DNA of 64,000 nucleotides from Candidatus Omnitrophota bacterium (GTDB taxonomy: Bacteria; Omnitrophota; Gorgyraeia; Tantalellales; Tantalellaceae): positions 4,712 to 68,711 of the forward strand of contig JADHWG010000001.1 of NCBI GenBank assembly GCA_016783605.1, read 5' to 3'. Shown in pieces: positions 3,715 to 61,487 of this stretch. The notes beneath the pieces are model-generated. The model saw only the letters and a list, made by a program, of their open reading frames with translations, did no database searches and was not told where the DNA came from. Both the position numbers and the translations under genes were made by a program. The number at the start of each line of letters is the position of its first letter. Positions within the stretch are counted from its first letter, which is position 1.

Positions 3715-6700
3715 TTAGAGCGACGAATCGATCTGATCTATACAATCTTTCCAGTCGCTTCGATCTATTCTTTCCATTGGTATGCCGAGGAGAAGTGTTT
3801 CCAACACCAAACGCATTAAAGTAACCGCGGCGCCTATTTGGAGCATCCTTCTTTGCCCGGTTGGAATTTCATTATAGGAAAGCATCAGATATAAGTCTTT
3901 TATGTCAATATCCTGACTGTGCGTTACGGCTCGCATCAGCTTTTTTATGTCCTGAGCGAGAGTTTGTTCACCATTTTCCGCTTTTTGGACATCTTTAGGA
4001 GTGAGACATCCTTGGAGAATACCTATTCTTAAAGCAGTAGACGCGTATAGCCACCCTTTGCCGCTTAATCCTTCTATGTCGGGAAGAGACAAAATTCTTG
4101 TTTGTTTAAGTATGTCCTCCAATTTCTCAGGCATATCAAAATCGCTTTCAGGCTGTATAGCTGTAATATTTGATTCGGTCGCGAATAAAACGGGTATCCT
4201 TACGTCTTCAGGACTTTTCGAACTTAGACTGCTACTGAGCAAATTTACCACACTTTGCTGATCTAACCCTGCTTCACTATTGTATTCTTTAATCTTTACC
4301 GCTCCTTTACCGAAAAGTTTATCCAGATTCCGCTGAGTTTTTTCTTTGGAACCATCACCTGAAAGGCTATCAGAAAACATCTCTTTAGGAACGATAAGAT
4401 CGATCTTGTTTTTCTTTACGAGAGAAGCGTGTTTTTCTAGCATTTCGTATACGTTGTAAACAGCCTGTTCTCCTTCTGTATTAGCATAACTCGCCTCAAC
4501 AATAACTGTCTCACTATGCAAAGTCTTTTTAATCCAGTAGTCGTTAATTTCACGTACCGTGGGTGGTTTTCGGAAATGAAATTTTCTGCCGTCCGGACTC
4601 TCAATTATCAGTCTTCCTTCAATAGAATCCCCGTCTTCCCGAATATCCATGTTTACATCTATCACCTCTCCCGGTCCGAATACAACAATTTTTTCATCTT
4701 TATCCACAAGAAGATTATTGTTATTGATTTCGATCTCTACCGCGCCGCTCTTTACAACAAGCCTATGAGGTCTTTGCACTCCCCCATGTGTTATCCTCTT
4801 TGGCGGACGTTTCTTTTCACCATTAATCGTGATCACGTCCACTTCCTCGGATTTCAGACCATAATCTTTAATAACACCTCTTTCTTCGCTTGCAACAATA
4901 TTTGTTCCTCCTATTTTTTTGCCTTGTTTAAACGGTTTTGCAATTGGAATTTTTCTTTTCAGGGCGGGAACAAATATGTCCAGGATTTCCGCTTCTTGTT
5001 CTAACGTCTCAACTGATACGCTCTTCGCGGAAGCCGGGATCACAAGCAAGAATCCTCCTTTCGCTAAAGACACAATCTTTGCGGTTTTTATATCTCCCCT
5101 CGCGTCTGTAACAGAAATAGTCGCTGATCCTGTTTTAACAGCAAGGATGTGAAGTCCGTGTGTTGATTCCTCCGGTTCTTCCCCTAAAGATAAAACGTTT
5201 TTTCCGTCTGATTGTGCCATAATAATTCTGTCCATTCTGTAAGCACTCTTTACCAGAATGTTGAGTTCCACGCTATCCTTTTCTTGCAATTCTTTTACCC
5301 CCATTTCAGGAAACACAATACCGTTTTCCCGAATAGCGTCTTTGCCTAAAAGTTCTTCGGGAAAATATTTTAGCGCGCTCTTTAACTTCGACAGTGTGAT
5401 CGTCTTCGGCGCATCCGGTGATTCTAAGTTACATGCATCAATATCACCTTCGAGATCCAAATAAAACGGAGCCCCGTTTTTGATAGTTTCGGTTATCGTT
5501 GCGTCTATCCCTTCAGGTTCTTCTACATCTTCATAATATCCTTTTTGCCTGGCAAGCGGCGCGGCTTTTTGCGGTTCAGATTCATTCGCGGTCATTTCGG
5601 CGTGTACTGCCATTACTTCGTTGATCGGGGTAATAGCGGGCATATGTTTCCTGTCCGATATAATTTGAATTGTTTTCGCGAGATCATCATCAAGCTTTGT
5701 TTTTAAATTACTAACATTTGTCGAGCGGTATTCATACTCGGGAATGATCGCCTGTATCCCGGCTTTTTCCATATTTGCAATCTGCCGAGGAGCCGACACT
5801 GCTGTCGGGTCAATTACAGCATGTGTCACACCGGCTGATGCCAAAAATTCCGCCGGAATAATACCGGTATTGGATCCTGTTCCGCGTGTCGCGATATTAT
5901 CTTCGCGACCGTCGATCGTTATTATTTTTTTCTTTTCATCTGTCGTCGCGTCCCGGAATAACTCGCTCACGTCTTCACCGCGAAGTTCGCGAAGAGCCGC
6001 GTCAATGTGAAGCCGGGAAATACAATGAAAAATGTTCACTTTTTCAAGATCCACGCCGGCGTCTTCATAACCTTGTATCCACGGCATCCAGGGACCTTTT
6101 TCGTTTGCCTTAAAGTTGTACAAAAGATCGAGCCCGTCTTTTACACCCGCGGCAGTTTCGGCTAATTTAACCGCGTTCGCGAGGGTGTAAATATAGCGCG
6201 CGACAAACGCGCCGTTATAACCGGCGACCTCTACCATGCCTTCAATGATATCAGCCTTTGTTCCGCCGCCGTAAGAGATTTTCAATCTTTTTCGGTATTC
6301 TTCGCGCAGGTCTTCGATCATATTGTTCCACCAATCGCCTTTCCAAGCATCTTTATCTTTAAAAACATAGCCAAATAGTGTCGCAATATTTTCCGCCTGA
6401 GTTATCTCCATTTCCGAAGGCACTCCCAATTCCAAAAACACAGGTATCTGCTTTTCCAGACGGAATTTCGCGACCTTCTCATGAAGAGATGCTCCACGAA
6501 TCGCTTTAACAGGTTCATACGGATTTATAAACTGGTACAGAACGGTTTCTATCGGCACATTTTCGAACAGTATTTTTATCTGATAGTTTATCTCATAGAC
6601 CGTTGAAATTTCTTCTATGATGCGGCGTTTTACTTCATCTAAGTTATTCAGTATTACCTCGATTGTTTTGGCTATTGTACCTTGTTGGTCTATTATTTTT

Positions 6701-8607
6701 TGCGTGCTAAGATCATTCCACCTTAGATCGTATTCTAAAAACGACGCGTATTTGTCCTCTATCGCGCCTATAATATCCGGGGTCTCATTATTCTCCGCGG
6801 CTTCTTTTGTAACATCATCTACCAGTTTTTTAAATTCAGCCTCAAGTAAAGGCTTCAAAATACCGTAATACGCACCGTATTCTTTATGTGTTTTAATGCC
6901 TTCTATCTCATCAATCTTCTGTACCGCGTCGACCTCATGGCTTAAAGCCCACACAGCTTTCATATCTTCATCATTTGTCAGGTTTTTTTTCAACGCTATT
7001 TCATCCGGCGTAACAGGAAAGAAACGTAAACCTCTTTCATGGTATTCCTTGTCCGTCATAAAGTCACCCCAAGGTCCGACGATCCTATATGCGGCTTTTT
7101 GAAATAAATCTCTTTGCGCGCGTATCGCCACAATACCCATATTCAGATAATCCCTTACCTCAGAATGCCCGATAGCAACCAGCATAGGCGCGCCGACAGG
7201 AATATCATCCGGCGTCATATCAGGCGTGACTATTGTGACAGGTCCTATCGGATCCCACTGGTACCAAACTTCGTTATTGAATCCTTTCACGTGGTTAATT
7301 TTCTTATTTTTAAGCCACAGCTCCTCGAGGATTTCTTCAGCGTCATCAGGTTTCTTGCTGATGAGCGTGGCAAATTGCTCTACGGTAAAGGGCGTATGTT
7401 TACCAAATACCTTTGCCATTTCATAATATCCTTCAAGAGATCCATCGTCTACAACAATTGTCTGCGCTATTATCTCTTCATTTCTGCGAAATATGTCCTC
7501 AAATTTCTTTTCCTGTTTTCGGAGCGCGCTTAGCCTTGCCATGATGGGCCGGATATCCGAGCCCTGCTGATTATTTACCCATTCTTCTTCGCTTTTGAAG
7601 CCAAATGCCGCGATCGCGTCAGACGTCAGTGCTATTAAGCCAAGCGCAATTCGCGTATGAATGTCTTCATGCTGTGCTAAAACTATTTTTTCCGATTCTG
7701 TGAGACGGTCATACGATGATTCCCTCATGTAGTAGTATTCCTCCACGCTTTCCAGACTTCCATATTTTTCATACTGTTTTCTTGTCTCTCTGGTACCGGG
7801 ATGGCATTCAATATCACTCGGCGCTCCAGTTGATTCAATGTATTTTTCGTAAAGTTCATCCGGCAAAACGATAAAATATCCACCGGTTGCGTTGTCTCTC
7901 CTGCCATACATTTTCATAAATTCTTCTTGTATTTTGGCCTTACCATTTGTTCTAAAGCTTACACTTATTTGCCTCTTCAGGTCTTCAATTGTAAGCGTGA
8001 TCGCCAGATTTAGCCTACCGTGCTCCTCCCGCGTCAGCGGTTTATTTCGATTCGCTCCGGTTCGGGCATACCACTCACCCGCCGACCGGGTTGGAAGACC
8101 GGCTTTTCCCCTTGCCCTTATTCTAAACTTATCGAATTCAACTTTGACGCGCGTCCTTATTTCATTCGGAATGTTTTCTTTGCCAAGATTTTTTTCATAT
8201 TTTCCTAAAAAATCCGTAAAAATCGTTTCCCAATCTTTGTCGTTTTCTACGAGTTTCATCCATTCGCTGTGCGCTTCTTTTTCGCTCTCAAAGCTAGGTA
8301 TCATCTCTTTTTTCATCCCATCAAGATAGCTCTCTACACATTTCCCGGTTGCTTCTCTGATCTTGTCAAGAACTCCGTCTTTGCTAATATCCTTGAACCA
8401 CTCTTTCAGGTTTTTCTCTACATCTTTGTCGAGTACAATCCTACTCCCAAATCCGAATTTTAAAGCTGTCGAGAGAGTGTCTTGTGTAGATTCCGGAACG
8501 ACAGAAAAACGCTCTGCCGCGAAAGTCGTATTGCTAAAAGAAAAAGCCAAAACTAAAAAAAGGCTTATTGTTTTACAGAACGTTGATTGTTTGAAATTAC
8601 TTTTCAT
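3715..8607 (-). CDS. giant secreted protein (1630 aa), function unknown; contains an HExxH (HEDIH) motif
   Basis: Long uninterrupted ORF with an N-terminal signal peptide (LFLVLAFSFSNTTFA). No family was recognised by eye. It has a single zincin-like HEDIH motif. Confidence 0.7.
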   Translation of the reverse strand: MKSNFKQSTFCKTISLFLVLAFSFSNTTFAAERFSVVPESTQDTLSTALKFGFGSRIVLDKDVEKNLKEWFKDISKDGVLDKIREATGKCVESYLDGMKKEMIPSFESEKEAHSEWMKLVENDKDWETIFTDFLGKYEKNLGKENIPNEIRTRVKVEFDKFRIRARGKAGLPTRSAGEWYARTGANRNKPLTREEHGRLNLAITLTIEDLKRQISVSFRTNGKAKIQEEFMKMYGRRDNATGGYFIVLPDELYEKYIESTGAPSDIECHPGTRETRKQYEKYGSLESVEEYYYMRESSYDRLTESEKIVLAQHEDIHTRIALGLIALTSDAIAAFGFKSEEEWVNNQQGSDIRPIMARLSALRKQEKKFEDIFRRNEEIIAQTIVVDDGSLEGYYEMAKVFGKHTPFTVEQFATLISKKPDDAEEILEELWLKNKKINHVKGFNNEVWYQWDPIGPVTIVTPDMTPDDIPVGAPMLVAIGHSEVRDYLNMGIVAIRAQRDLFQKAAYRIVGPWGDFMTDKEYHERGLRFFPVTPDEIALKKNLTNDEDMKAVWALSHEVDAVQKIDEIEGIKTHKEYGAYYGILKPLLEAEFKKLVDDVTKEAAENNETPDIIGAIEDKYASFLEYDLRWNDLSTQKIIDQQGTIAKTIEVILNNLDEVKRRIIEEISTVYEINYQIKILFENVPIETVLYQFINPYEPVKAIRGASLHEKVAKFRLEKQIPVFLELGVPSEMEITQAENIATLFGYVFKDKDAWKGDWWNNMIEDLREEYRKRLKISYGGGTKADIIEGMVEVAGYNGAFVARYIYTLANAVKLAETAAGVKDGLDLLYNFKANEKGPWMPWIQGYEDAGVDLEKVNIFHCISRLHIDAALRELRGEDVSELFRDATTDEKKKIITIDGREDNIATRGTGSNTGIIPAEFLASAGVTHAVIDPTAVSAPRQIANMEKAGIQAIIPEYEYRSTNVSNLKTKLDDDLAKTIQIISDRKHMPAITPINEVMAVHAEMTANESEPQKAAPLARQKGYYEDVEEPEGIDATITETIKNGAPFYLDLEGDIDACNLESPDAPKTITLSKLKSALKYFPEELLGKDAIRENGIVFPEMGVKELQEKDSVELNILVKSAYRMDRIIMAQSDGKNVLSLGEEPEESTHGLHILAVKTGSATISVTDARGDIKTAKIVSLAKGGFLLVIPASAKSVSVETLEQEAEILDIFVPALKRKIPIAKPFKQGKKIGGTNIVASEERGVIKDYGLKSEEVDVITINGEKKRPPKRITHGGVQRPHRLVVKSGAVEIEINNNNLLVDKDEKIVVFGPGEVIDVNMDIREDGDSIEGRLIIESPDGRKFHFRKPPTVREINDYWIKKTLHSETVIVEASYANTEGEQAVYNVYEMLEKHASLVKKNKIDLIVPKEMFSDSLSGDGSKEKTQRNLDKLFGKGAVKIKEYNSEAGLDQQSVVNLLSSSLSSKSPEDVRIPVLFATESNITAIQPESDFDMPEKLEDILKQTRILSLPDIEGLSGKGWLYASTALRIGILQGCLTPKDVQKAENGEQTLAQDIKKLMRAVTHSQDIDIKDLYLMLSYNEIPTGQRRMLQIGAAVTLMRLVLETLLLGIPMERIDRSDWKDCIDQIDSSL

Positions 8608-10818: not shown

Positions 10819-11223
10819 CTAAAACTGTTTTGTCAAATTTTCTTTGGACGGTTTTGTTTGTTTTCTCGTTATCCAATAACTTTTCGCGTTTCTATCGAGT
10901 TTCGCGTCCAATATGTCTTTTCCGAAAATGCGCATCACAAGACCTATCGGAGTAAGTATAGCATAATATACTACTGTCAGGATAATTCTGGTATTCACCC
11001 ATCCTATCGCGTGAGCAACTTTTGTAAACACCTTAAAGACCGGTTTAAGTTTCATCGGAAAAAATATTCCGAATATTAGAGAAACCGCCGAAACAGAAAA
11101 AAACCATTTGTACGCGGTTTGATGATGTTTTAAAAAATGGATGGTGCCGAAAACGCACAGGATCATCCCCAAAACTATTCCGAATTGTCTTAGATCTTTT
11201 TTTTGAACTTTTTTCATAAACAT
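10819..11223 (-). CDS. SxtJ-like small membrane protein
   Basis: 134 aa with 3 transmembrane helices and a …VLGWVNTRIILTVVYY…TPIGLVMR… signature, in the typical position after a carbamoyltransferase gene. Confidence 0.55.
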   Translation of the reverse strand: MFMKKVQKKDLRQFGIVLGMILCVFGTIHFLKHHQTAYKWFFSVSAVSLIFGIFFPMKLKPVFKVFTKVAHAIGWVNTRIILTVVYYAILTPIGLVMRIFGKDILDAKLDRNAKSYWITRKQTKPSKENLTKQF

Positions 11224-11234
11224 CCTACCCGCTC

Positions 11235-13064
11235 TTAATCCAGTTCAAATTCCTCAATTTCTTCTATTCTGAGTCGTTCCCGCGGCTGTTTCTTTTTATC
11301 AACAATGAACGAACCCATAACAAGATAATCCATGTTCGTTCTCATAAAACATTTGTACGCGTCACGCGGGGTACAAACTATCGGCTCCCCCCGCACGTTG
11401 AAAGAAGTGTTAATGACCAAAGGAGATGAATGGTTCTCATCCAGCTTCTTCATCATATCATAATATACCGCGTTATCTTCTCGTTTAACCGTTTGAACTC
11501 TCGCCGAATAATCAACATGTGTTATTGCCGGCACGGTGGATCTTTTAATTTTGAGCTTATCAAGACCTTTGAATTCACTTGTTCCTTCATTCGAAATACG
11601 TTGATTTCCCGCAACAGGCGCGACTATCAACATATAGGGACTTCCGCCTTTTAGTTCGAAATATTCTTCCGTTTCTTCTTCGAGAATACTCGGAGCGAAA
11701 GGTCTGAAAGATTCTCTGAATTTTATCTTCCGGTTGATCAATGACTGCATTTCTTGACTTCGCGCGTCGCCCAGAATGCTTCTGGCGCCAAGCGCGCGCG
11801 GACCGAACTCCATTCTGCCTTGAAACCAACCGACAACTTTCTGCTGTGCGATCAACGCCGCGGTCACTTCCGGCAAAACGTCTCGTTCCACTTTTTCGTA
11901 AGGAATATCGTTTTCAGTAAGAAATTTCTCTATTTTTCCATCACTAAATGATGGGCCTAAAAGACTCGCTTTCTGACTATCTTTATTTTCTTCTCGAGGG
12001 CGGCTTCCTTTAAGATATTCACACCACCCGATGAACGCCGCGCCTATCGCGCCGCCGGCGTCTCCGGAAGCCGGTTGTATCCACATGTTCTCAAAAGGTC
12101 CGTCTCTTAGCAACTTTCCGTTTGCCACGCAGTTTAACGCCACACCTCCCGCTAAACATAAATTGCGGAGGTGAGTTTTTTCTTGAACATATTTCGCCAT
12201 GTTCATAATAACTTTTTCAGTAACAACCTGAACGGATCTTGCCAGATCCATGTGTCTTTCGGTTAAATCGCTTTCTTTCTTGCGCGGAGGCGCACCGAAA
12301 AGCTTGTCAAACTTCTTATTGGTCATCGTAAGACCGGTGCAATAATTAAAATACTTCATATTCAGCTTGAAAGACCCGTCTTCTTTCAAGTCTATCAAAT
12401 TGTCCAGGATCTTGTCCACATACTTGGGCTCTCCGTAAGGAGCGAGCCCCATAAGTTTATATTCACCGGAATTAACTTTAAACCCGCAATAATATGTGAA
12501 TGCCGAGTATAAAAGTCCTAAAGAATGCGGGAACCTTATTTCTTCCAAAAGTTCTATGCCGTCGGAGTTACCTTTTCCGAAACTGACAGTTGTCCATTCA
12601 CCGACACCGTCAACCGTCAAAATTGCCGCTTCGTTAAAAGGAGAAGGATAAAACGCGCTTGCCGCGTGAGAATGATGATGTTCCGGAAAAATGATCTCGC
12701 CTTTATATCCCAAAATATCCCGGATATGTTCTTTCATGAAAAGTTTCTGTTTTATCCATGGAGGCATCGCGGATAGAAAGCTTTTTACCCCAAAAGGCGC
12801 GTAAGCTAAATACGTCTCCAATATTCGTTCAAATTTGATAAACGGTTTATCATAAAAAGCGACTATATTGACGTCCTTGATGGAAATACCGGCCTCTTCC
12901 AAACAATATTGTACGGCTCGCTCCGGGAACGACGGATCGTGTTTCTTTCGAGTAAATCTCTCTTCCTGCGCCGCGGCAAGAATTTCTCCGCCGGCGATAA
13001 GCGCCGCCGCGGAATCATGATAAAACGCTGAAATGCCCAATATATACGTCTTTTTTCCGTCCAT
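11235..13064 (-). CDS. NodU/CmcH-family carbamoyltransferase (SxtI-like)
   Basis: 609 aa with an N-terminal Kae1/YrdC-like ASKHA domain (ILGISAFYHDSAAAL), internal HHxSHAASAF, and a C-terminal carbamoyltransferase domain. Confidence 0.85.
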   Translation of the reverse strand: MDGKKTYILGISAFYHDSAAALIAGGEILAAAQEERFTRKKHDPSFPERAVQYCLEEAGISIKDVNIVAFYDKPFIKFERILETYLAYAPFGVKSFLSAMPPWIKQKLFMKEHIRDILGYKGEIIFPEHHHSHAASAFYPSPFNEAAILTVDGVGEWTTVSFGKGNSDGIELLEEIRFPHSLGLLYSAFTYYCGFKVNSGEYKLMGLAPYGEPKYVDKILDNLIDLKEDGSFKLNMKYFNYCTGLTMTNKKFDKLFGAPPRKKESDLTERHMDLARSVQVVTEKVIMNMAKYVQEKTHLRNLCLAGGVALNCVANGKLLRDGPFENMWIQPASGDAGGAIGAAFIGWCEYLKGSRPREENKDSQKASLLGPSFSDGKIEKFLTENDIPYEKVERDVLPEVTAALIAQQKVVGWFQGRMEFGPRALGARSILGDARSQEMQSLINRKIKFRESFRPFAPSILEEETEEYFELKGGSPYMLIVAPVAGNQRISNEGTSEFKGLDKLKIKRSTVPAITHVDYSARVQTVKREDNAVYYDMMKKLDENHSSPLVINTSFNVRGEPIVCTPRDAYKCFMRTNMDYLVMGSFIVDKKKQPRERLRIEEIEEFELD

Positions 13065-13179
13065 ATTTACCGCTAAACCCTTCTTGACCGCCCGTATTTT
13101 GAACTGTATTATATCTTACAACAAACCACAATTACAAGCCTTGTTTTACCTCCCCCAAACACCCCACCCCCTTCGACAA

Positions 13180-13270
13180 CCTCGTAGGGGCACGGCATGC
13201 CGTGCCCTTTACCACACAAATCACAAATCCCATGAGGGCACGGCATGCCGTTCCCCTACGAAGTTGGTGG
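13180..13270. repeat. BIME-like composite (family-B half-site, REP-A, 28-bp linker, REP-A) in the divergent promoter region
   Basis: caacctcgtaggggcacggcatgccgtgccctttaccacacaaatcacaaatcccatgagggcacggcatgccgttcccctacg. Confidence 0.8.
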
Positions 13271-13346
13271 TGATAAGTGACTGGGCAAGTGATTCTGTTA
13301 AATATTCTTGCTTTTCAGGTTCTAAAAATGTAGACTTGTCTCGGAC

Positions 13347-15005
13347 ATGCATATGAATCTCATAAAATACACTCTAAAATTATTGCGAATTCGGGCAAAC
13401 GCGTTTGAGAAAAACACCAAAGATCCCATTAAAGCGCAGAAAAGGGTTCTTCTGGAGTTTCTTTCTCGTAACCGCAAAACAGAATATGGCTCAAAATATG
13501 GGTTTGGCAACATAAGATCCATCGATGAATACCGGCGGCGCGTTCCTCTAACCGATTATGAAAAACTTCGCCCTCTTGTGGAAAGAATAGCAAAAGGGGA
13601 ACACAACATTCTGACAAAAGACGATCCGGTTTTTTTCAGCATCACAAGCGGCTCGACCGGAAAACCAAAACTCGTTCCCGTAACAAAATATTCCAAAACA
13701 AAAAACGCCCGCGTCATAAACTTGTCAGCGTATTATGTCACACATGATCACCCGAATATTGTTACGGGAAAAATACTCGCGATAGTAAGCCCTGAAATCA
13801 GCGGATATACCCCCTCCGGCATACCTTACGGCGCTGAAAGCGGACATGCTTATAAAAATCTTCCGGGCGCTATAAAAGGTGCTTATTCTCTCCCGTATGA
13901 AGTTTTCGAGATAGACGATTATGACGCGCGTTATTACACCATACTTCGCGTCTCAATGGAACACGATATAACGATCATCGCCACTATGACCCCAAGCACA
14001 ATAATTCTTCTTTGCCAACTGATAGAAAAAGTGCGGGATGACGTTATTGAGGACATTCGAAACGGAACCATTAAAAAAAGCTTAAAGATATCGCCTCCTC
14101 TCAGAAAAGCTTTGGAAAATCAGTTTAAACCCAATTCGAAAAGAGCGAATGAACTTACAAAAATCTTAAAAGAAAAAGGTTCGCTTCTGCCGAAACATTT
14201 CTGGGGCAATCTTCAAGTGATAGAATGCTGGAAACGCGGTTCAATGGAGTTATATCTAAAAAAATTTCCAAAATATTTTGGAAACGTAGCAATCCGCGAC
14301 TTCGGATATTTTTCCAGCGAAATGCGTAGTTCCGTTCCCATGAAAGATGAAGGCGCCGAAGGCGTTTTGGCTATTACGACCAATTTTTACGAATTTATTC
14401 CCCGGGAAGATAAAAACAAAGAAGAAAAAAGAGTGCTTTTATGTAATCAACTGGAGAAGGGGCAGGAATATTTCATCGTGCTCACAACGCCCGGCGGATT
14501 ATGCCGATATAACATCGACGACATGATAAAAGTTACAGGTTTTTTTAATAAAACTCCCATAATCGAGTTTGTTCAGAAAGGAACCAGCGTCACTTCCGCG
14601 GTCGGTGAAAAACTCTATGAATCTCAAATAGTCGAAGCTGTAAAAATCGCGACCGCTAGATTAAATGTGCCGCTTGAACTTTTTGTAGCGGTCGTGGAAT
14701 GGGCGGATTCCGCGCGATACGCTTTTCTAGTGGAATTTATTGAAGACGCAACACAGGAAAAGAAAAAAGAACTTCTGCTCGCTATCGAAAAAGAACTTTG
14801 CCGATTAAATGAGGAATACGATTTTAATAGAACTTCCCAAGAACTAGCGCATCCTGTTTTAAAAGTGCTCGCCCGCGGCAGTTTTGAAAAATTCAGAACG
14901 ACAAAAATAAAAGAAGGCGCCCACGACAGCCATTTCAAACTCCCGCAACTAACTTCAGATCAAACTTTTCAGAAAAATTTCGATATTATTGAAGAAATCG
15001 ATTAG
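13347..15005 (+). CDS. GH3-family adenylate-forming acyl-acid amido synthetase-like protein
   Basis: 552 aa with an SGSTGKPKLVPVT AMP-binding-like motif and the family N-terminal region. Divergently transcribed from the carbamoyltransferase operon. Confidence 0.7.
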   Translation: MHMNLIKYTLKLLRIRANAFEKNTKDPIKAQKRVLLEFLSRNRKTEYGSKYGFGNIRSIDEYRRRVPLTDYEKLRPLVERIAKGEHNILTKDDPVFFSITSGSTGKPKLVPVTKYSKTKNARVINLSAYYVTHDHPNIVTGKILAIVSPEISGYTPSGIPYGAESGHAYKNLPGAIKGAYSLPYEVFEIDDYDARYYTILRVSMEHDITIIATMTPSTIILLCQLIEKVRDDVIEDIRNGTIKKSLKISPPLRKALENQFKPNSKRANELTKILKEKGSLLPKHFWGNLQVIECWKRGSMELYLKKFPKYFGNVAIRDFGYFSSEMRSSVPMKDEGAEGVLAITTNFYEFIPREDKNKEEKRVLLCNQLEKGQEYFIVLTTPGGLCRYNIDDMIKVTGFFNKTPIIEFVQKGTSVTSAVGEKLYESQIVEAVKIATARLNVPLELFVAVVEWADSARYAFLVEFIEDATQEKKKELLLAIEKELCRLNEEYDFNRTSQELAHPVLKVLARGSFEKFRTTKIKEGAHDSHFKLPQLTSDQTFQKNFDIIEEID

Positions 15006-18937: not shown

Positions 18938-19899
18938 CTACCCCTTAATAACGCCTATTGGACGCATTTTTGCGACTTTTTTTGATAGTCCGGCGTTTTG
19001 GACTATATCTACCACATTCGTTACGTCTTTATACGCGTCTGACGCTTCTTCTCCAAGCGTATCTCGACCTGTATATCGTACAATAATGCCCTTATCGGCG
19101 AGTTCTCGAACGATGGAACGCCCTCGTGTGATCTTTTTGGCCAATGTACGCGACATCAATCTTCCCGCGCCGTGACATGTGGAATTAAACGTCTCTCGCG
19201 CCTCTTTTGTTCCGCTTAAAAGATAGGAACACGTGCCCATATCTCCCGGAATTATTACGGGCTGACCCGTTCGTCTATATTTTACCGGCAGGTCTTTGTG
19301 TCCCGGACCTAACGCGCGTGTGGCTCCCTTACGATGAACGCATAACGCGCGTAATTTGCCTTTAATTTCATAATTTTCTATTTTTCCGATATTATGCGCC
19401 ACATCATAAACCAAATGTAGACCTAAAGATTCAGCACTCGCGCCAAACACTTCTTCAAAAACTCCGCGTGTTAAATGCATTATCACTTGCCGGTTACACC
19501 ACGCGTAATTCGCCGCCGCGCGCATGGCGCCGAGATACGCTTCGCCTTCTTCGCTTTTAACCGGCACGCACGCGAGTTGACGATCCGGCATGTTTATTCC
19601 GAATTTTGACATCAGTTTTATCATGCTTGCCGCGTAATCACCGCACACTTGGTGTCCGAATCCTCTGGAGCCTGTATGTATCATTACCGTAATTTGTCCT
19701 TTTCTATACCGAATATTTTTGCTTCTTTTTCGCTGTAAATTTCATCCACCACCTGCACTTCAAGAAAATGGTTGCCCGAACCTAACGTCCCGGACTGTTT
19801 TTGTCCGCGCTGACGCGCGCGGAGCAACATCTTTTTCAAAAAGATCCGTCCGCATAAACCTTACGCCGCAATTTGATACTACAAAATTGTTAGCGATAA
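18938..19899 (-). pseudogene. rtcB: rtcB RNA ligase, disrupted: -1 frameshift in an A-run plus loss of the N-terminal ~120+ aa
   Basis: The C-terminal 248-aa ORF carries MIHTGSRGFGHQ…HGAGR. An upstream different frame carries [19 protein letters not shown]…FGIEK and terminates where the C-frame begins ([10 protein letters not shown]). Only ~90 bp, all of it repeat, separates this from the archease stop. Confidence 0.6.
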
Positions 19900-19912
19900 A
19901 ATTATGAACCGC

Positions 19913-19976
19913 GAAACAACCTCGTAGGTTGAACCTACGAGGTTGACGGAGGGGTGCAACTTACGAGGTTGTTTCG
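19913..19976. repeat. family-B triloop-hairpin palindrome cluster (CCTCGTAGG / CCTACGAGG) nested in a larger inverted repeat
   Basis: ccgcgaaacaacctcgtaggttgaacctacgaggttg…cttacgaggttgtttcgcgg; occupies the position where the rtcB 5' region should be. Confidence 0.7.
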
Positions 19977-19992
19977 CGGTGGAATTGGGAGT

Positions 19993-20412: not shown

Positions 20413-20516
20413 CTCCTCATGAAATTATAGCTAAAAAAGAATATATGAGCCCATATGCCCGTATCTTTATTATAGCAAAGAGCGCGCGCTTAAACAGCTA
20501 AAAATAATTTGGCAAA

Positions 20517-20573
20517 CAAAAGACAAAAACCGCGGGAGCATATATATGCATTCCCGCGGTTTTTGTCTTTTAT
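20517..20573. terminator. bidirectional intrinsic terminator (20-bp perfect stem)
   Basis: aaaagacaaaaaccgcggga-[gcatatatatgcat]-tcccgcggtttttgtctttt. Confidence 0.6.
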
Positions 20574-20590
20574 TGTAACGCTATTGATAA

Positions 20591-20674
20591 CTACTTCTTT
20601 TTTCTCGCCTTTGCTTTTTTGGGAGCGCTTTTCTTACATTCCTTCTTAGCACTTTTTTTAGCACTTTTTTTCAT
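20591..20674 (-). CDS. 27-aa Lys/Ala-rich peptide (MKKSAKKSAKKECKKSAPKKAKARKKK)
   Basis: Strong Shine-Dalgarno site (GAGGAGGTG) 7 nt upstream of the ATG, immediately after the LysW-like gene and followed by the terminator above. Not in the ORF track because it is shorter than 60 aa. Confidence 0.4.
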   Translation of the reverse strand: MKKSAKKSAKKECKKSAPKKAKARKKK

Positions 20675-20703
20675 ATTTCACCTCCTCATCAGAAATATAC
20701 ATA

Positions 20704-20937
20704 CTATTCTCCCCATCTATCACGTTCATCGTCTCCGTAAAAATCGTGAAAATCAAAATTTTCCTCTTCTTCTTCGGATTCTTCTATTTCTCGGAGTCTT
20801 ACAACAGGATCGACCCCCACTACTTCCAATTCTGCTTCACAATTCAAACAATAAATTATATCCCCAAGTTCAACTTCGTCTTCTATTTCTATGGCATCCA
20901 AACAACTAGGACACTTTGTTATCTCTCGCTTAACCAT
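20704..20937 (-). CDS. LysW/ArgW-like amino-group carrier protein (Zn-ribbon with C-terminal …DRWGE)
   Basis: CPSC…CLNC zinc ribbon, an AELEVVGVDPV segment matching the LysW core, an acidic tail, and a terminal WGE like LysW's EDWGE. Confidence 0.55.
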   Translation of the reverse strand: MVKREITKCPSCLDAIEIEDEVELGDIIYCLNCEAELEVVGVDPVVRLREIEESEEEEENFDFHDFYGDDERDRWGE

Positions 20938-20976
20938 TTCCTCTCCTCAAATATTATTGATTTATTTAAAAATATT

Positions 20977-21309
20977 TTATTCCTCTTCTTCGTATAGGTA
21001 TATTGACACAATCTGATTCTTCCCGTCTTTAACTATACATTCTACTGACACCTCACTGCCCGCTTTAATCTCCTCCAAAGAATCTATATTCTCCAATTCC
21101 GTATCCGCGGTAATTTCGTATATCATGCTCTTTTCCGTATCAAGATCAAAATCATACTCATTGAGAGTAACGGAACCGTCCGAAATACTCACAACTGTCC
21201 CATACGCAGAATCTACCAAATCCTCTTGTTCCTGAGCAACAGCAAACACAGAAAACATTGTCACCGATAAAACTACACTTATTACCGCCATTAAAAAAAA
21301 TTTTCTCAT
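20977..21309 (-). CDS. small secreted acidic protein
   Basis: Signal peptide; 110 aa; overlaps the arsR-family gene by 4 nt. Confidence 0.45.
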   Translation of the reverse strand: MRKFFLMAVISVVLSVTMFSVFAVAQEQEDLVDSAYGTVVSISDGSVTLNEYDFDLDTEKSMIYEITADTELENIDSLEEIKAGSEVSVECIVKDGKNQIVSIYLYEEEE

Positions 21310-21665
21310 TTAATTTTCCTCCTTTTTTTGTTGTTTTTTCTACTTTCCAATTTTTTAAAATCTTCTTTGAATACCGCTAAGTCTTTTAGTCCATTTGTAA
21401 TTGAATTAAGTAGTTCTTTGTGCGCTGTATTTGTAGGGCTTGCTAAAAAATAATGTACGTTATTCCCCTCCCTCCTATCTCCGACAATACCTGTCAACCT
21501 TAACCGCGTAAGATGTTTAGATATGTTTGACTGATTTTTATCAAGTATTTCACAAAGTTCGGTCACATTTATTTCCCGCTTGTGTTTAAGAAGGTTAATT
21601 ATTCTTAAGCGTGTATCATCAGCTAACGATTTTAGTATTTGTCGGGCTTTTTTAATTTTCATCAT
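21306..21665 (-). CDS. ArsR/SmtB-family transcriptional regulator
   Basis: LADDTRLRIINLL…ELCEIL…QSNISKHL helix-turn-helix (HTH) motif. Confidence 0.8.
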   Translation of the reverse strand: MMKIKKARQILKSLADDTRLRIINLLKHKREINVTELCEILDKNQSNISKHLTRLRLTGIVGDRREGNNVHYFLASPTNTAHKELLNSITNGLKDLAVFKEDFKKLESRKNNKKRRKIK

Positions 21666-21689
21666 ATCTCATCCTAGTGCACCAAAATA

Positions 21690-21713
21690 CAGATTAAAGC
21701 ATATGAGTATATG
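21690..21713. promoter_or_regulatory. operator-like inverted repeat gcatatgag-N6-ctcatatgc upstream of the arsR-family gene
   Basis: 9-bp perfect arms located 25 bp upstream of the regulator start; ArsR/SmtB operators are AT-rich inverted repeats. A weaker copy (atatgagcccatat) lies at ~20447 upstream of archease. Confidence 0.3.
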
Positions 21714-21864
21714 CTCATATGCGAATGTAGTTTACTATAAAATTGCCCTAAGTCAAGAGCAAAAGATAACTTTTTTCATAGGAATATTTCTAAAAATTCT
21801 CTTAAAAATAGAGGCAAATCCCAAGGCAGGAATACAACAAAAATAGCCGTTTATAGGCTTAGAT

Positions 21865-26590: not shown

Positions 26591-27952
26591 TTATAAATCT
26601 ACAACTTGAATTTCATTTGTATCGTTTATACTATTCATAAAGTCGTAAATTTTATTATCAAAAATTATGTCACTTTCAGCGATCGGTCTTTTTAAGCGGA
26701 TGCCTTCCAGGGCGCGGCATCGGCTTAACGCGACATAGGTCTGTCCATGAGTAAAAGCGCCGCGGCCGATATCTATCATAACTTTATCGAACGTCTGCCC
26801 CTGACTTTTGTGTATTGTTATCGCCCATGCCAATTTTATTGGATATTGTTTAAAACAACCGATAACTTTTTCCTCGATATTGTCAGTTTTTTTATTGTGA
26901 GAATATCGTATTTTTTCCCAAGTCATTTTGGGAACGTCACAAATTTTCTGATCTATACTCACCCGTATCAAACTGTCGGAGAGTTCTACAACCCTGCATA
27001 TCGTCCCGTTCACCCATTGTTTTTTAGGATCGTTTTTAACCATGATCACCTGGGCGCCGGTTTTCAGCGTAATATCTTTTTCGACCGGATAATCTTTATC
27101 TTTAAATTCTCCTTCTATTGAGGCGGAATATGTGAATTCTTCATTCGAAATTTGAGCGAGACGCTTTTTGTTAATTCTTTCCGCGACACTATTCGTTGCC
27201 GTTAACGTCACAACTCCTTCATTCTCCTCTCGATTATCACTATCTACTCTTTCGTTCAAACCAAAAAGATCGTCCGCGGCGCATATCTTTTCTCGGACTT
27301 TATTTAAGAGAGAGATAAATTTCTCATCTTTTTGCCTGTATATTTTACTGAGATCGATCGTTCTCAATTTAATTTCTCTAAATACGTTAGCGCTGAAAAA
27401 ATATGGACTGGTGTATCTCTGTTTTAGAATATCTTCGAATTCTTTGTTAACGACCGGCGGCAACTGAAAAAGGTCCCCGAACAAGATCATCCTCGCGCCT
27501 CCAAACGCCGAATTCATTTCATTTCTGTTCAATCTAAGCGAAGAATCTATCCCATCCAGCAGATCCGCCCTTACCATAGACGCCTCATCAATAACAACAG
27601 CATCAATGCGATGCATCAGATCATCTTTATATAAGCGTTTAATGTGGTCGCGCAGAATAAACCTCGGCGGAAACCTGAAAAAGGAATGAATCGTTTGTCC
27701 ATGCACTTTGATAGCCGCGACCCCGGTCGGCGCCAATACAACGATATTCTTTCGGGTGTTCATCCTGAAATATTCCAAGAGAGTTGACTTCCCCGTTCCG
27801 GCTTTCCCCGTAATAAAAATATGTTCACGAGAATTCTCCAAAAGTTCAAATGCCGCGCGAAATTCGTCATTAAACTCAAAGTCGGTCGGAAGTTCCGTTT
27901 TTGTCTCTCGTACAAGTTCATTTTTAAAATCATCCGGCATACTTAACTCCAA
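26591..27952 (-). CDS. Pif1/RecD-family (AAA_30) DNA helicase
   Basis: Walker A GKAGTGKST, VIDEASM, and C-terminal AITIHKSQGQTFD / GQTYVALSR motifs. Confidence 0.7.
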   Translation of the reverse strand: MELSMPDDFKNELVRETKTELPTDFEFNDEFRAAFELLENSREHIFITGKAGTGKSTLLEYFRMNTRKNIVVLAPTGVAAIKVHGQTIHSFFRFPPRFILRDHIKRLYKDDLMHRIDAVVIDEASMVRADLLDGIDSSLRLNRNEMNSAFGGARMILFGDLFQLPPVVNKEFEDILKQRYTSPYFFSANVFREIKLRTIDLSKIYRQKDEKFISLLNKVREKICAADDLFGLNERVDSDNREENEGVVTLTATNSVAERINKKRLAQISNEEFTYSASIEGEFKDKDYPVEKDITLKTGAQVIMVKNDPKKQWVNGTICRVVELSDSLIRVSIDQKICDVPKMTWEKIRYSHNKKTDNIEEKVIGCFKQYPIKLAWAITIHKSQGQTFDKVMIDIGRGAFTHGQTYVALSRCRALEGIRLKRPIAESDIIFDNKIYDFMNSINDTNEIQVVDL

Positions 27953-28086
27953 TCACAAAATCTTTACTTTGTCATCCCCCCTATTGTATCAACACACCGC
28001 GGTGATACAACCGTTTTTCCCCTCACTTAGTTACCTTTTTGTCGGTTCTGAGTTCAAAGCAGCTCGTCACTAACAAAAACAGGAAC

Positions 28087-28127
28087 ATCTCCCTTGCGGG
28101 TGACGTCCCTGTTTTTTCTTTTTTTGT
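28087..28127. repeat. hairpin-terminator repeat, copy 1 (aacaggaacatctcccttgcgggtgacgtccctgtt)
   Basis: Near-identical to copy 2 at 29225..29265 and in the same orientation. The two copies bracket the HEPN/MNT pair. Confidence 0.7.
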
Positions 28128-28595
28128 TTAAAACTTGAACTGCTGTTGTGGGTTTTCCTTCCTAATCTCTTTTTTAATAATCTGAATAAACTTAGTTGCC
28201 GAACTTAAGGCATTCTTTGCGTCAGTATTTGAAAGATTCAATTTCCACGGTTCATAGATGAATTTATTACGGTTTTTTCTCATATAATCAAATTTTGCGG
28301 TTAATGCTTTATATTCCGCACCCAAAAAATATTCCGTGAAACCCACAACTGTTTTGTGTTGGAAATTTGTTGTAGGTCTGAAGCCTTTTATGAATACAAA
28401 CGCTCTTGCCGCGTGAAGCATGGCGTTATAAGCCATCTCATATGAACATGTCTCATCTATCGCAAGTGTTTTTTCACTGGCCTTCAGTTTACTCTCTGCA
28501 GCCTGTATCAACTTCTCTATCTGACCTACTCCTATCTTCTCCCTTTTAATAAGCTTCTTTTCTAAATATTCATTCAAAAATTTATCAGAGTTCAT
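28128..28595 (-). CDS. HEPN-domain protein (putative toxin of a HEPN/MNT pair)
   Basis: 155 aa all-helical, with an Rx6H motif (FRPTTNFQH). Overlaps the upstream nucleotidyltransferase gene by 11 nt. Confidence 0.55.
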   Translation of the reverse strand: MNSDKFLNEYLEKKLIKREKIGVGQIEKLIQAAESKLKASEKTLAIDETCSYEMAYNAMLHAARAFVFIKGFRPTTNFQHKTVVGFTEYFLGAEYKALTAKFDYMRKNRNKFIYEPWKLNLSNTDAKNALSSATKFIQIIKKEIRKENPQQQFKF

Positions 28596-29157
28596 TTGCT
28601 GTTCCCTTTATTAATATTTTTTTTCCTTTCACTACCGCAGAGACAAAAGAATCTTTCTTCGCTTTTTCTTTTTTATATTCCTTTTCCGTATATGTCGTGT
28701 AATTGACTTCTCGGAACAATTCTTTTTCGAGTCCACTTATAACTGTTATTAAGTTGTTCTCATCAATATTGTCACCTATTAAAAACAGGTCTACATCACT
28801 ATCGTTTCTCTCATCTCCTTTAGCGAAGGATCCGTATACGAATGCCATCCTAATGCCATTTATAGCTATTATGGCGTCACTAAGATATTTGATGATTCCT
28901 TCTGTTTTGTGAAAAATATTTTTTAACTCTTCATATATGGGACTCCTCTTATTTAATGAAAAAAGCTTAATGTTTCCCACGCTTCTAACATTAAGCATCC
29001 CCAAAGAAAGAAGTTTTTTTAACTCCCGGTGTACATTTCCAACGGATATCTTATGCATTGAAGCCAACTGCCGGGTATAGAACTCATTGTCGGGTTCACC
29101 AAAGAACGTGCTCAATATGATCTGTCTGGTTTTTGATCCTAATATTTCTTTAAACAT
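28585..29157 (-). CDS. winged-HTH plus minimal nucleotidyltransferase (MNT) protein
   Basis: GSFAKGDERNDSDVDLFL nucleotidyltransferase (NTase) signature (GSx9-13DxD) with an N-terminal HTH. Confidence 0.7.
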   Translation of the reverse strand: MFKEILGSKTRQIILSTFFGEPDNEFYTRQLASMHKISVGNVHRELKKLLSLGMLNVRSVGNIKLFSLNKRSPIYEELKNIFHKTEGIIKYLSDAIIAINGIRMAFVYGSFAKGDERNDSDVDLFLIGDNIDENNLITVISGLEKELFREVNYTTYTEKEYKKEKAKKDSFVSAVVKGKKILIKGTANEL

Positions 29158-61289: not shown

Positions 61290-61487
61290 TTAAGTTATAC
61301 CTTTCTCTTCTTGTGCCGGTCTCTTCTCATTCTTTTTTTCCGTTTATGTCTTTTAACTTTTTTTATTTTTCTTTTCTTCCCACAGGGCATGCCGTTTCCA
61401 CCTCCTTAAATCGGCTGTAACATAGTAGGGTACAGACATGCCTGTACCTACCCTATTAACGGACAAGCACAGGGGCCTGTCCCTTGT

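Follow-up and report, generated by a model that had tools for sequence, protein, structure and literature searches.

A LysW-fold zinc ribbon protein encoded beside a conserved polylysine reading frame in an ArsR-headed operon of Omnitrophota

A 64,000-nt stretch of contig JADHWG010000001.1 from a Candidatus Omnitrophota bacterium (the window; 42% GC) contains a compact minus-strand operon for four small products: an ArsR-family regulator, a secreted acidic protein, a zinc ribbon protein with the fold of LysW, the amino-group carrier protein (AmCP), and a 27-residue polylysine peptide. The initial annotation drew attention to this arrangement, and all of the genes it listed are present. All operon elements lie between about 20515 and 21756. 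The firm conclusion is a negative one: the LysW-like protein is no orthologue of the LysW that serves lysine or arginine synthesis. More tentatively, this polyanionic protein may bind polycations, among them the peptide encoded beside it. The fold and the regulator class are known; the context outside AmCP pathways, the conserved polylysine microprotein, and the family-wide pattern of gene linkage are new.

Related loci (L numbers) were collected with a degenerate DNA pattern, made by hand to describe the ribbon, because diverse alignments offered no stretch conserved enough for a search. Run on 185,579 species genomes, the pattern returned 61 loci, mostly from Omnitrophota, Anaerolineae/Chloroflexota, 'Planctomycetia' metagenome-assembled genomes (MAGs), and Pyrinomonadaceae; a metagenome scan found 7 loci beyond these. 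Protein matches carry P numbers; an exhaustive HMMER search covered 1.84 billion representative proteins. A word-indexed homology search returned two matches for the LysW-like protein and four for the secreted protein.

Operon anatomy, the regulator, and the secreted protein

A consensus scan places a sigma-70-type promoter (TTGACT, 16 nt, TAAACT) at 21729-21756 on the minus strand. Directly after its −10 hexamer lies a perfect 9-6-9 palindrome, GCATATGAG-CATATA-CTCATATGC (21699-21722), which bears out the operator-like inverted repeat first noticed upstream of arsR. The palindrome is unique in the window, where no chance matches are expected. A weaker second copy, proposed upstream of the archease gene, did not hold up: no match is present there at three or fewer mismatches, and only two abutting half-site-like runs can be seen by eye. 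In the orthologous loci L001, L021, and L059, the promoter keeps both hexamers and the distance between them. Across these three and the window, the four arsR-bearing loci, the left half of the palindrome (ACATTCGCATATGAGCATATA) is nearly identical; the right arm is perfect in the window, retains 7/7 positions in L059, and is weaker in L001 and L021. Related elements of the form ATATGC..ATA.AG follow TTGACA promoters before ArsR genes in more distant loci (L014, L015, L018, L023, L025, and L058). The operon is probably autorepressed by ArsR, through predicted binding to the palindrome that overlaps the transcription start.

At its other end, the operon closes with the intrinsic terminator initially described (20515-20574, minus strand): a stem of 20+ bp followed by a U-run, with a folding energy of −40.3 kcal/mol (z = −8.8; 0/200 shuffles fold as well). 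Hairpins occupy the matching position in L001, L021, L059, L006, and L072, where stem sequences differ and pairing is kept. Rfam returns only sub-threshold matches of small-RNA type around the terminator, reflecting the hairpin.

The first gene, arsR (21306-21665, minus strand), encodes a 119-residue winged-helix regulator of the ArsR/SmtB family, matching Pfam HTH_5 (PF01022; 1.2e-11) and NCBIfam NF033788 (79.2 bits; cut-off 55). It reaches no sensor-specific equivalog in NCBIfam: BigR scores 43.8 against a cut-off of 155, and CmtR 36.8 against 150. Its alpha-3 site reads ELCEILD, with a single Cys, against ELCVCDLC at the arsenic site of the R773 ArsR protein; a recognisable alpha-5 His/Asp/Glu ligand set is absent. 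The carboxyl-terminal tail, RKNNKKRRKIK, is basic (+7). Orthologues of this regulator are encoded directly upstream of LysW-like genes in eight loci (L001, L021, L059, L014, L015, L058, L023, and L025). At L018, the ArsR carboxyl terminus continues in frame into the LysW-like ribbon open reading frame (ORF). PADLOC and PHROGs give no defence or phage signal for the ArsR, secreted, or LysW-like proteins beyond generic winged helix-turn-helix matches.

The second gene (20977-21309, minus strand), whose start overlaps the arsR stop by 4 nt, encodes a secreted acidic OB-fold protein of 110 residues. It has an amino-terminal signal-like helix, a mature part of net charge −20, and an EEEE tail. Pfam assigns it to no family (DUF5666, 23 bits against 27). 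A secreted, β-rich acidic protein of this kind adjoins the LysW-like gene in the window clade and in 9 further Omnitrophota loci. In residues 53-65, a loop of the form DFD(L/V)D(T/G)EK, conserved in L021 and L059, resembles the DxDxDG calcium-binding motif; the loop is weaker in the L072 clade (NFDLDLTK).

Ion transporter genes often flank ArsR/LysW-like operons (L014, L058, L021, L059, L018, L023, and L025; 22521-24179 in the window), their type varying by locus: CorA, TauE/SafE, RND efflux, or Na/Pi-PhoU. Together with the ArsR/SmtB family of the regulator, the CusF-like fold of the secreted protein, and its DxDxDG-like loop, these transporters invite a reading of the operon as a cation-homeostasis module. 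An ArsR/SmtB sensor would control a carboxylate-rich periplasmic OB-fold protein of CusF/SilF type and a cytoplasmic, likewise carboxylate-rich, zinc ribbon protein. The two proteins would bind or buffer a metal or small cation (Ca2+, Mg2+, or polyamines), and the peptide would serve as accessory counter-ion or regulator. We consider this plausible but unlikely, on several counts: the regulator keeps one Cys of the ELCVCDLC site, lacks a recognisable alpha-5 site, and passes no specific metal-sensor equivalog; the flanking transporters change from locus to locus; and in LysW the four ribbon Cys serve a structural purpose. Moreover, the 110-residue protein differs from CusF/SilF and from the BOF family (YgiW, YdeI/OmdA) in being extremely acidic with an EEEE end, and in having no Met/His/Trp ligands, so that the Cu/Ag site of CusF/SilF is missing.

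The SmtB-SmtA system, like other small binding proteins under ArsR/SmtB control, offers a similar comparison. It shares with this operon an ArsR-family repressor, a palindromic operator at the repressor's own promoter (with binding predicted here), and small binding proteins that include a Cys4 zinc protein. It differs in three respects: the canonical residues that sense metal are missing here, the genes run co-directionally rather than divergently, and zinc plays a structural part in the LysW fold.

A LysW fold outside the carrier pathway

The third gene (20704-20937, minus strand) encodes a 77-residue Cys4 zinc ribbon protein with the features that first suggested LysW: CPSC...CLNC, AELEVVGVDP, an acidic tail, and a terminal DRWGE. 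Its net charge is −20, of which the tail contributes −12. The protein passes the Pfam model Zn_ribbon_LysW (PF21344) with 40.2 bits against a gathering score of 27. A profile of its subclade, searched against Protein Data Bank (PDB) sequences, finds the LysW chains 5K2M (E = 1.5e-9) and 3WWL (E = 6.7e-8). In an AlphaFold2 model, ribbon residues 1-50 have predicted local distance difference test values (pLDDT) of 78-90, and the tail about 50; the best six Foldseek matches of this model in the PDB are all LysW chains, with template modelling (TM) scores of 0.73-0.89. Because the Pfam, PDB sequence, and structural comparisons all lead to LysW, the fold assignment is sound.

Membership in the LysW-like ribbon family stands, but assignment to LysW itself does not, for both curated LysW models are missed: TIGR01206 (34.2 against 53.2) and NF041070 (27.5 against 75). 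The HMMER search returned 297 matches, only one of which is a close relative of the 77-residue protein. The next matches are many proteins of 60-120 residues with the same ribbon, a long tail rich in D/E/Y/F, and variable ends. These long-tail proteins score E = 1e-11 to 1e-9, and canonical proteins ending ...EDWGE about 2e-5; proteins ending ...EEEK likewise rank below the long-tail class. The 77-residue protein has 44 residues after its fourth Cys, compared with a median of 41 in the long-tail class and 27 in the ...WGE class, and its GDIIYC fits the long-tail ribbon signature G-[DE]-x-x-[YF]-C. Its own tail, of 27-30 residues, is polyacidic, aromatic-rich, and predicted to be disordered. 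With this ribbon signature, a D/E/Y/F-rich tail of about 40 residues, and a variable terminus, the protein falls within a large, uncharacterised branch of LysW-like proteins with long acidic tails, a branch whose members carry the database labels 'hypothetical' or the automatic 'lysine biosynthesis protein LysW'.

The closest clade comprises the window, L001, L021, L059, and L006/L070-72, with a common tail motif DF(H/R)DFY.DD. Its carboxyl termini diverge: DRWGE in the window, NRWGE in L001, EGDE in L021, DAEE in L059, and SWE in the L006/L072 clade. Against the EDWGE of the carrier, the window and L001 proteins thus keep WGE but lack ED, and those of L021 and L059 have lost the motif entirely.

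Canonical LysW and ArgW (Thermus thermophilus, Sulfolobus, and Thermococcus; 3WWL, 3VPB, and 5K2M) share much with the 77-residue protein: the Cys4 ribbon, with 41-46% identity over about 50 residues and the TM scores given above; an acidic surface; an acidic carboxyl-terminal extension; and a Glu at the very end. Both probably work by docking electrostatically onto basic partners. The 77-residue protein differs in a tail that is about 17 residues longer, aromatic-rich, and capped by a DRWGE that its sisters do not conserve. It differs also in the linkage of its gene: to ArsR, the secreted OB-fold protein, and the polylysine peptide, not to LysX/Z/Y/J/K.

The gene neighbourhoods reinforce this distinction. 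Pfam scans of about 58 ORFs spanning the 64-kb window, the extent of genome searched for ligase and pathway genes, reveal no ATP-grasp ligase and no LysX/Z/Y/J/K-type gene; within the window, the initial statement that no LysX or LysZYJK gene lies nearby therefore holds. A tblastn search with Escherichia coli RimK likewise gave no match in the window; as a positive control, the same search found the ATP-grasp genes that adjoin canonical LysW genes. The only amino-acid-kinase fold in the window sits between frr and tsf, and by this position is probably pyrH. Canonical EDWGE proteins recovered in the same scan (L037 and L049) both have an adjacent ATP-grasp gene, whereas an adjacent LysX-type gene accompanies 0 of about 55 long-tail loci. 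The sole ATP-grasp gene near a long-tail protein is an unrelated-looking rimK at L060, 1.4 kb off and on the opposite strand. The conserved partners of the 77-residue protein are instead the ArsR regulator and the secreted OB-fold protein, not enzymes.

Could the protein nonetheless be a genuine amino-group carrier, its terminal Glu γ-carboxyl charged by an unlinked ATP-grasp ligase, with the gene relocated or serving another pathway? The initial annotation implied a carrier identity. The LysW fold agrees with this, as do the WGE ends in the window and L001, the terminal Glu in 5/5 subclade proteins, and the W near the end (...SWE) in the L006/L072 clade. AmCPs outside lysine and arginine synthesis are known from secondary-metabolite clusters, and the ligase search reached 64 kb of the genome only. 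However, LysX recognises the EDWGE motif through its own GSWGR motif (PMC10433800), and here ED has become DR or NR where the motif is not lost altogether. The missed equivalog cut-offs, the overlong tail, and the want of ATP-grasp neighbours and of enzymes among the conserved partners, set beside the two canonical controls, make a carrier role improbable.

Other members of the family have other neighbours. A DUF2582 winged-helix protein is encoded immediately downstream of the LysW-like gene in sister clades (L009, L023, and L025). In a separate Omnitrophota long-tail clade, the LysW-like gene is followed by genes for a PilZ-domain protein and a 289-residue radical-SAM enzyme, in 8-9 loci (L010, L017, L041, L042, L044, L047, L053, L062, and L066). 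In nine Anaerolineae/Chloroflexota loci (L016, L020, L035, L040, L045, L050, L051, L056, and L065), a LysW-like protein bearing a conserved LDWPWEEDE junction is followed by a receiver-domain protein of about 230 residues; at L045, an ArsR protein with a CVC motif is encoded downstream. Some Omnitrophota ArsR operons contain tandem pairs of LysW-like genes (L014, 5066-5549; L058, 2141-2531), and single proteins of Cyanobacteria-like and other genomes carry two or three tandem ribbons. One protein of 1715 residues (P0003) contains 15 matched stretches.

Searches of the literature turned up no work on LysW-like proteins beyond AmCP pathways, and none devoted to the long-tail branch.

A conserved polylysine reading frame

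The last gene of the operon (20591-20674, minus strand) is an unannotated 27-codon ORF, MKKSAKKSAKKECKKSAPKKAKARKKK, net charge +14, preceded by the strong ribosome-binding site GAGGAGGTGAAAT, as initially described. An ORF of 84 nt falls below the usual minimum length of gene callers. Lack of conservation in relatives would have marked the ORF as spurious. Instead, it is found in 7 orthologous versions, each 25-37 nt after the stop of the LysW-like gene, and 5/7 have a ribosome-binding site of the AGGAGGTGA type. The consensus reads M.KC.KKS.K..CKK..PKK....KKKK. Beside the window's own, the versions include MTKCAKKSDKKECKKAAPKKVKAKKKK in L001, MKKCATKSAKEGCKKSPAKKAAPKKKK in L021, MTKCAKKSVKEDSKKSSPKKASPKKKK in L059, and MPKCTKKSAKGECKKESPKKAKAKKKK in L072. 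The L070 version has 25 residues, and in L006/L071 the end differs, with an A-run one base shorter. This polymorphism, A8 in L070 and A7 in L071/L006, switches the peptide carboxyl terminus between ...KKKK and ...KKRSSY; it may reflect slippage, real variation, or a homopolymer assembly error.

Start, length, and stop of the ORF are conserved, and differences fall about twice as often at its third codon positions as at the first and second. The ratio of non-synonymous to synonymous change (pN/pS) is 0.285 in frame, compared with 0.99 and 0.88 in the shifted frames, pointing to purifying selection in its own frame only; this value comes from 10 pairs of five 27-residue versions, which are not independent, and is supportive rather than a formal test. 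The ORF also persists in the L072 clade, where arsR is absent. Given the frame-specific pN/pS and the conserved start, length, and stop, the ORF is very probably a real coding gene. Units of SAPKK, SSPKK, and ASPKK give its products a composition like that of histone H1 tails. No family model in Pfam, NCBIfam, PADLOC, or PHROGs matches the 27-mer, and an exact look-up of six peptide versions in a collection of 15 billion proteins found none.

Two other roles for the ORF were rejected. The genes downstream of it vary (archease in the window and L001, DUF3795 in L059, and others in L006 and L072), whereas the upstream genes are constant, so the ORF is not a leader peptide or attenuator for whatever gene follows. 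Nor is it a read-through or frameshift extension of the LysW-like protein, because the two genes stand in different relative frames from one locus to the next (+2 in the window, +1 in L001).

That the ORF is non-functional, either a by-product of an A-rich 3′ untranslated region or a cis element (an AAA-run stall, or a Lys-sensing leader for archease), is highly unlikely: the A7-A8 runs are prone to slippage and one of them alters a carboxyl terminus, alternative frames are also open, and the terminator follows closely in the manner of an attenuator, but the pN/pS contrast is specific to one frame, the ORF boundaries and most ribosome-binding sites are conserved, the shifting downstream genes speak against a leader role, the differing relative frame excludes a read-through extension, and no alternative antiterminator pairing was seen.

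A proposed electrostatic pairing and its implications

How might these four products work together? The reading we favour, with a probability of roughly 0.4, is that of an ArsR-autoregulated module in which the polyanionic 77-residue protein would bind polycations, including the +14 peptide encoded with it. This would be a lineage-specific operon of small Omnitrophota proteins with a single promoter, repressed by its first product, the ArsR-type regulator, acting through the palindrome that overlaps the transcription start. Its further products would be a very acidic periplasmic OB-fold protein; a cytoplasmic LysW-fold zinc ribbon with a long disordered, polyacidic, and aromatic-rich tail; and, within this subclade, a polylysine microprotein of 27 residues that is reminiscent of protamine or the tail of histone H1. 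The ribbon protein would use its acidic surface and tail to dock electrostatically onto polycations, as LysW does onto its enzymes; the polycations here would be the +14 peptide translated alongside it and perhaps also the basic ArsR tail. If left free, the peptide would bind nucleic acids or other polyanions, and the ribbon protein may serve to buffer, chaperone, or antagonise it.

Four observations suggest this model. First, the genes for the 77-residue protein and the 27-residue peptide are tightly and persistently coupled. Second, the charges of the two products track each other across the seven pairs: −20 and +14 in the window, and −14 to −20 and +8 to +14 overall, with sums that stay between −3 and −6. 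Third, Lys/Arg-rich amino-terminal extensions are fused to LysW-like ribbons in P0022, P0058, P0119, and P0036, a pattern matched by the in-frame junction of ArsR and ribbon at L018. Fourth, a gene for a winged-helix protein of DNA-binding type, DUF2582, fills the same slot in sister clades.

Other observations weigh against it. Most members of the long-tail family have no adjacent polylysine ORF, which rules out the peptide as a partner for the family at large. The steadiest partner is the secreted OB-fold protein, which resides in another compartment and whose link to the ribbon protein the model leaves unexplained. The correlation of charges is drawn from seven related pairs, and some of the amino-terminal fusions may come from wrongly called start codons (an internal start is plausible in P0058). 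Finally, a terminal Glu kept throughout the subclade, twice within RWGE, fits a carrier role as well.

Precedents for such pairing come from eukaryotes, in which prothymosin-α with histone H1, and nucleoplasmin with histones, form polyanion-polycation protein pairs. The likeness to pairs of the prothymosin-α/H1 type lies in a disordered polyacidic segment, a Lys-rich polycation with S/A-P-K-K units, and opposite charges of similar size. The differences are that no homology is involved, that the acidic partner here includes a folded zinc ribbon and the basic partner has 27 residues, and that binding is only predicted. Among bacteria, chlamydial Hc1 and Hc2, AlgP, and the tails of mycobacterial Hlp are H1-like nucleoid proteins rich in Lys and Ala. 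They share with the 27-mer repeats of K, A, S, and P and SPKK-like units, but are either four- to eightfold longer or attached as tails to folded proteins. Like Chlamydiae, Omnitrophota are assigned to the Planctomycetes-Verrucomicrobia-Chlamydiae (PVC) group.

A bolder version of the electrostatic model, in our view doubtful, envisages the two products as a bacterial polyanion-polycation pair made for each other, a miniature counterpart of prothymosin-α with histone H1 or of nucleoplasmin with histones. Under an ArsR switch, the acidic partner would gate the nucleic-acid binding of a protamine-like microprotein, which may condense nucleoid or RNA; the long-tail family as a whole would then be electrostatic modulators of basic DNA-binding proteins.

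Several other features of the window deserve mention. Downstream of the intact archease gene lies an RtcB pseudogene (18938-19990, minus strand). Its carboxyl-terminal 248 residues are intact (Pfam profile positions 184-426); its amino-terminal part can be read only with at least 2 frameshifts and lacks the first 60-100 residues. In L001 (6634-6852) and L002 (2994-3242), RtcB is reduced to a fragment of 72-82 residues and archease is intact. At 61295-61390 (minus strand), just upstream of a gene for a TPR protein, an extremely basic 31-residue ORF, MPCGKKRKIKKVKRHKRKKRMRRDRHKKRKV, is preceded by a ribosome-binding site; it presumably resembles small basic ribosomal proteins of the bS22 type, although no NCBIfam model matched. 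A 1630-residue ORF (3715-8607, minus strand) has no Pfam family and only a chance-level TIM match. At 10819-15005 are genes for an SxtJ-like protein and a carbamoyltransferase, with the opposite strand encoding a GH3-family acyl-acid amido synthetase, an ATP-dependent amide-forming enzyme unrelated to LysX; this cluster could be a small modification or secondary-metabolite locus. Finally, at 26591-29157 (minus strand), a PIF1-like helicase gene adjoins a pair encoding HEPN and nucleotidyltransferase (MNT) proteins, a typical toxin-antitoxin arrangement.

If electrostatic pairing proves true, the LysW fold would have a second, non-metabolic use, as a zinc ribbon handle for a polyanionic tail that binds polycations, and the conserved polylysine microprotein would be one more bacterial gene missed by gene callers. 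Omnitrophota are uncultured and often ultra-small, and the operon gives them a compact target for work in vitro that is easy to synthesise. Automatic naming of such proteins as 'LysW', made irrespective of pathway context, could distort metabolic reconstructions of Omnitrophota and Chloroflexota MAGs. Were pairing to extend to the whole long-tail family, its members' 'LysW' annotations would be wrong, and the family would represent widespread and unrecognised electrostatic modulators.

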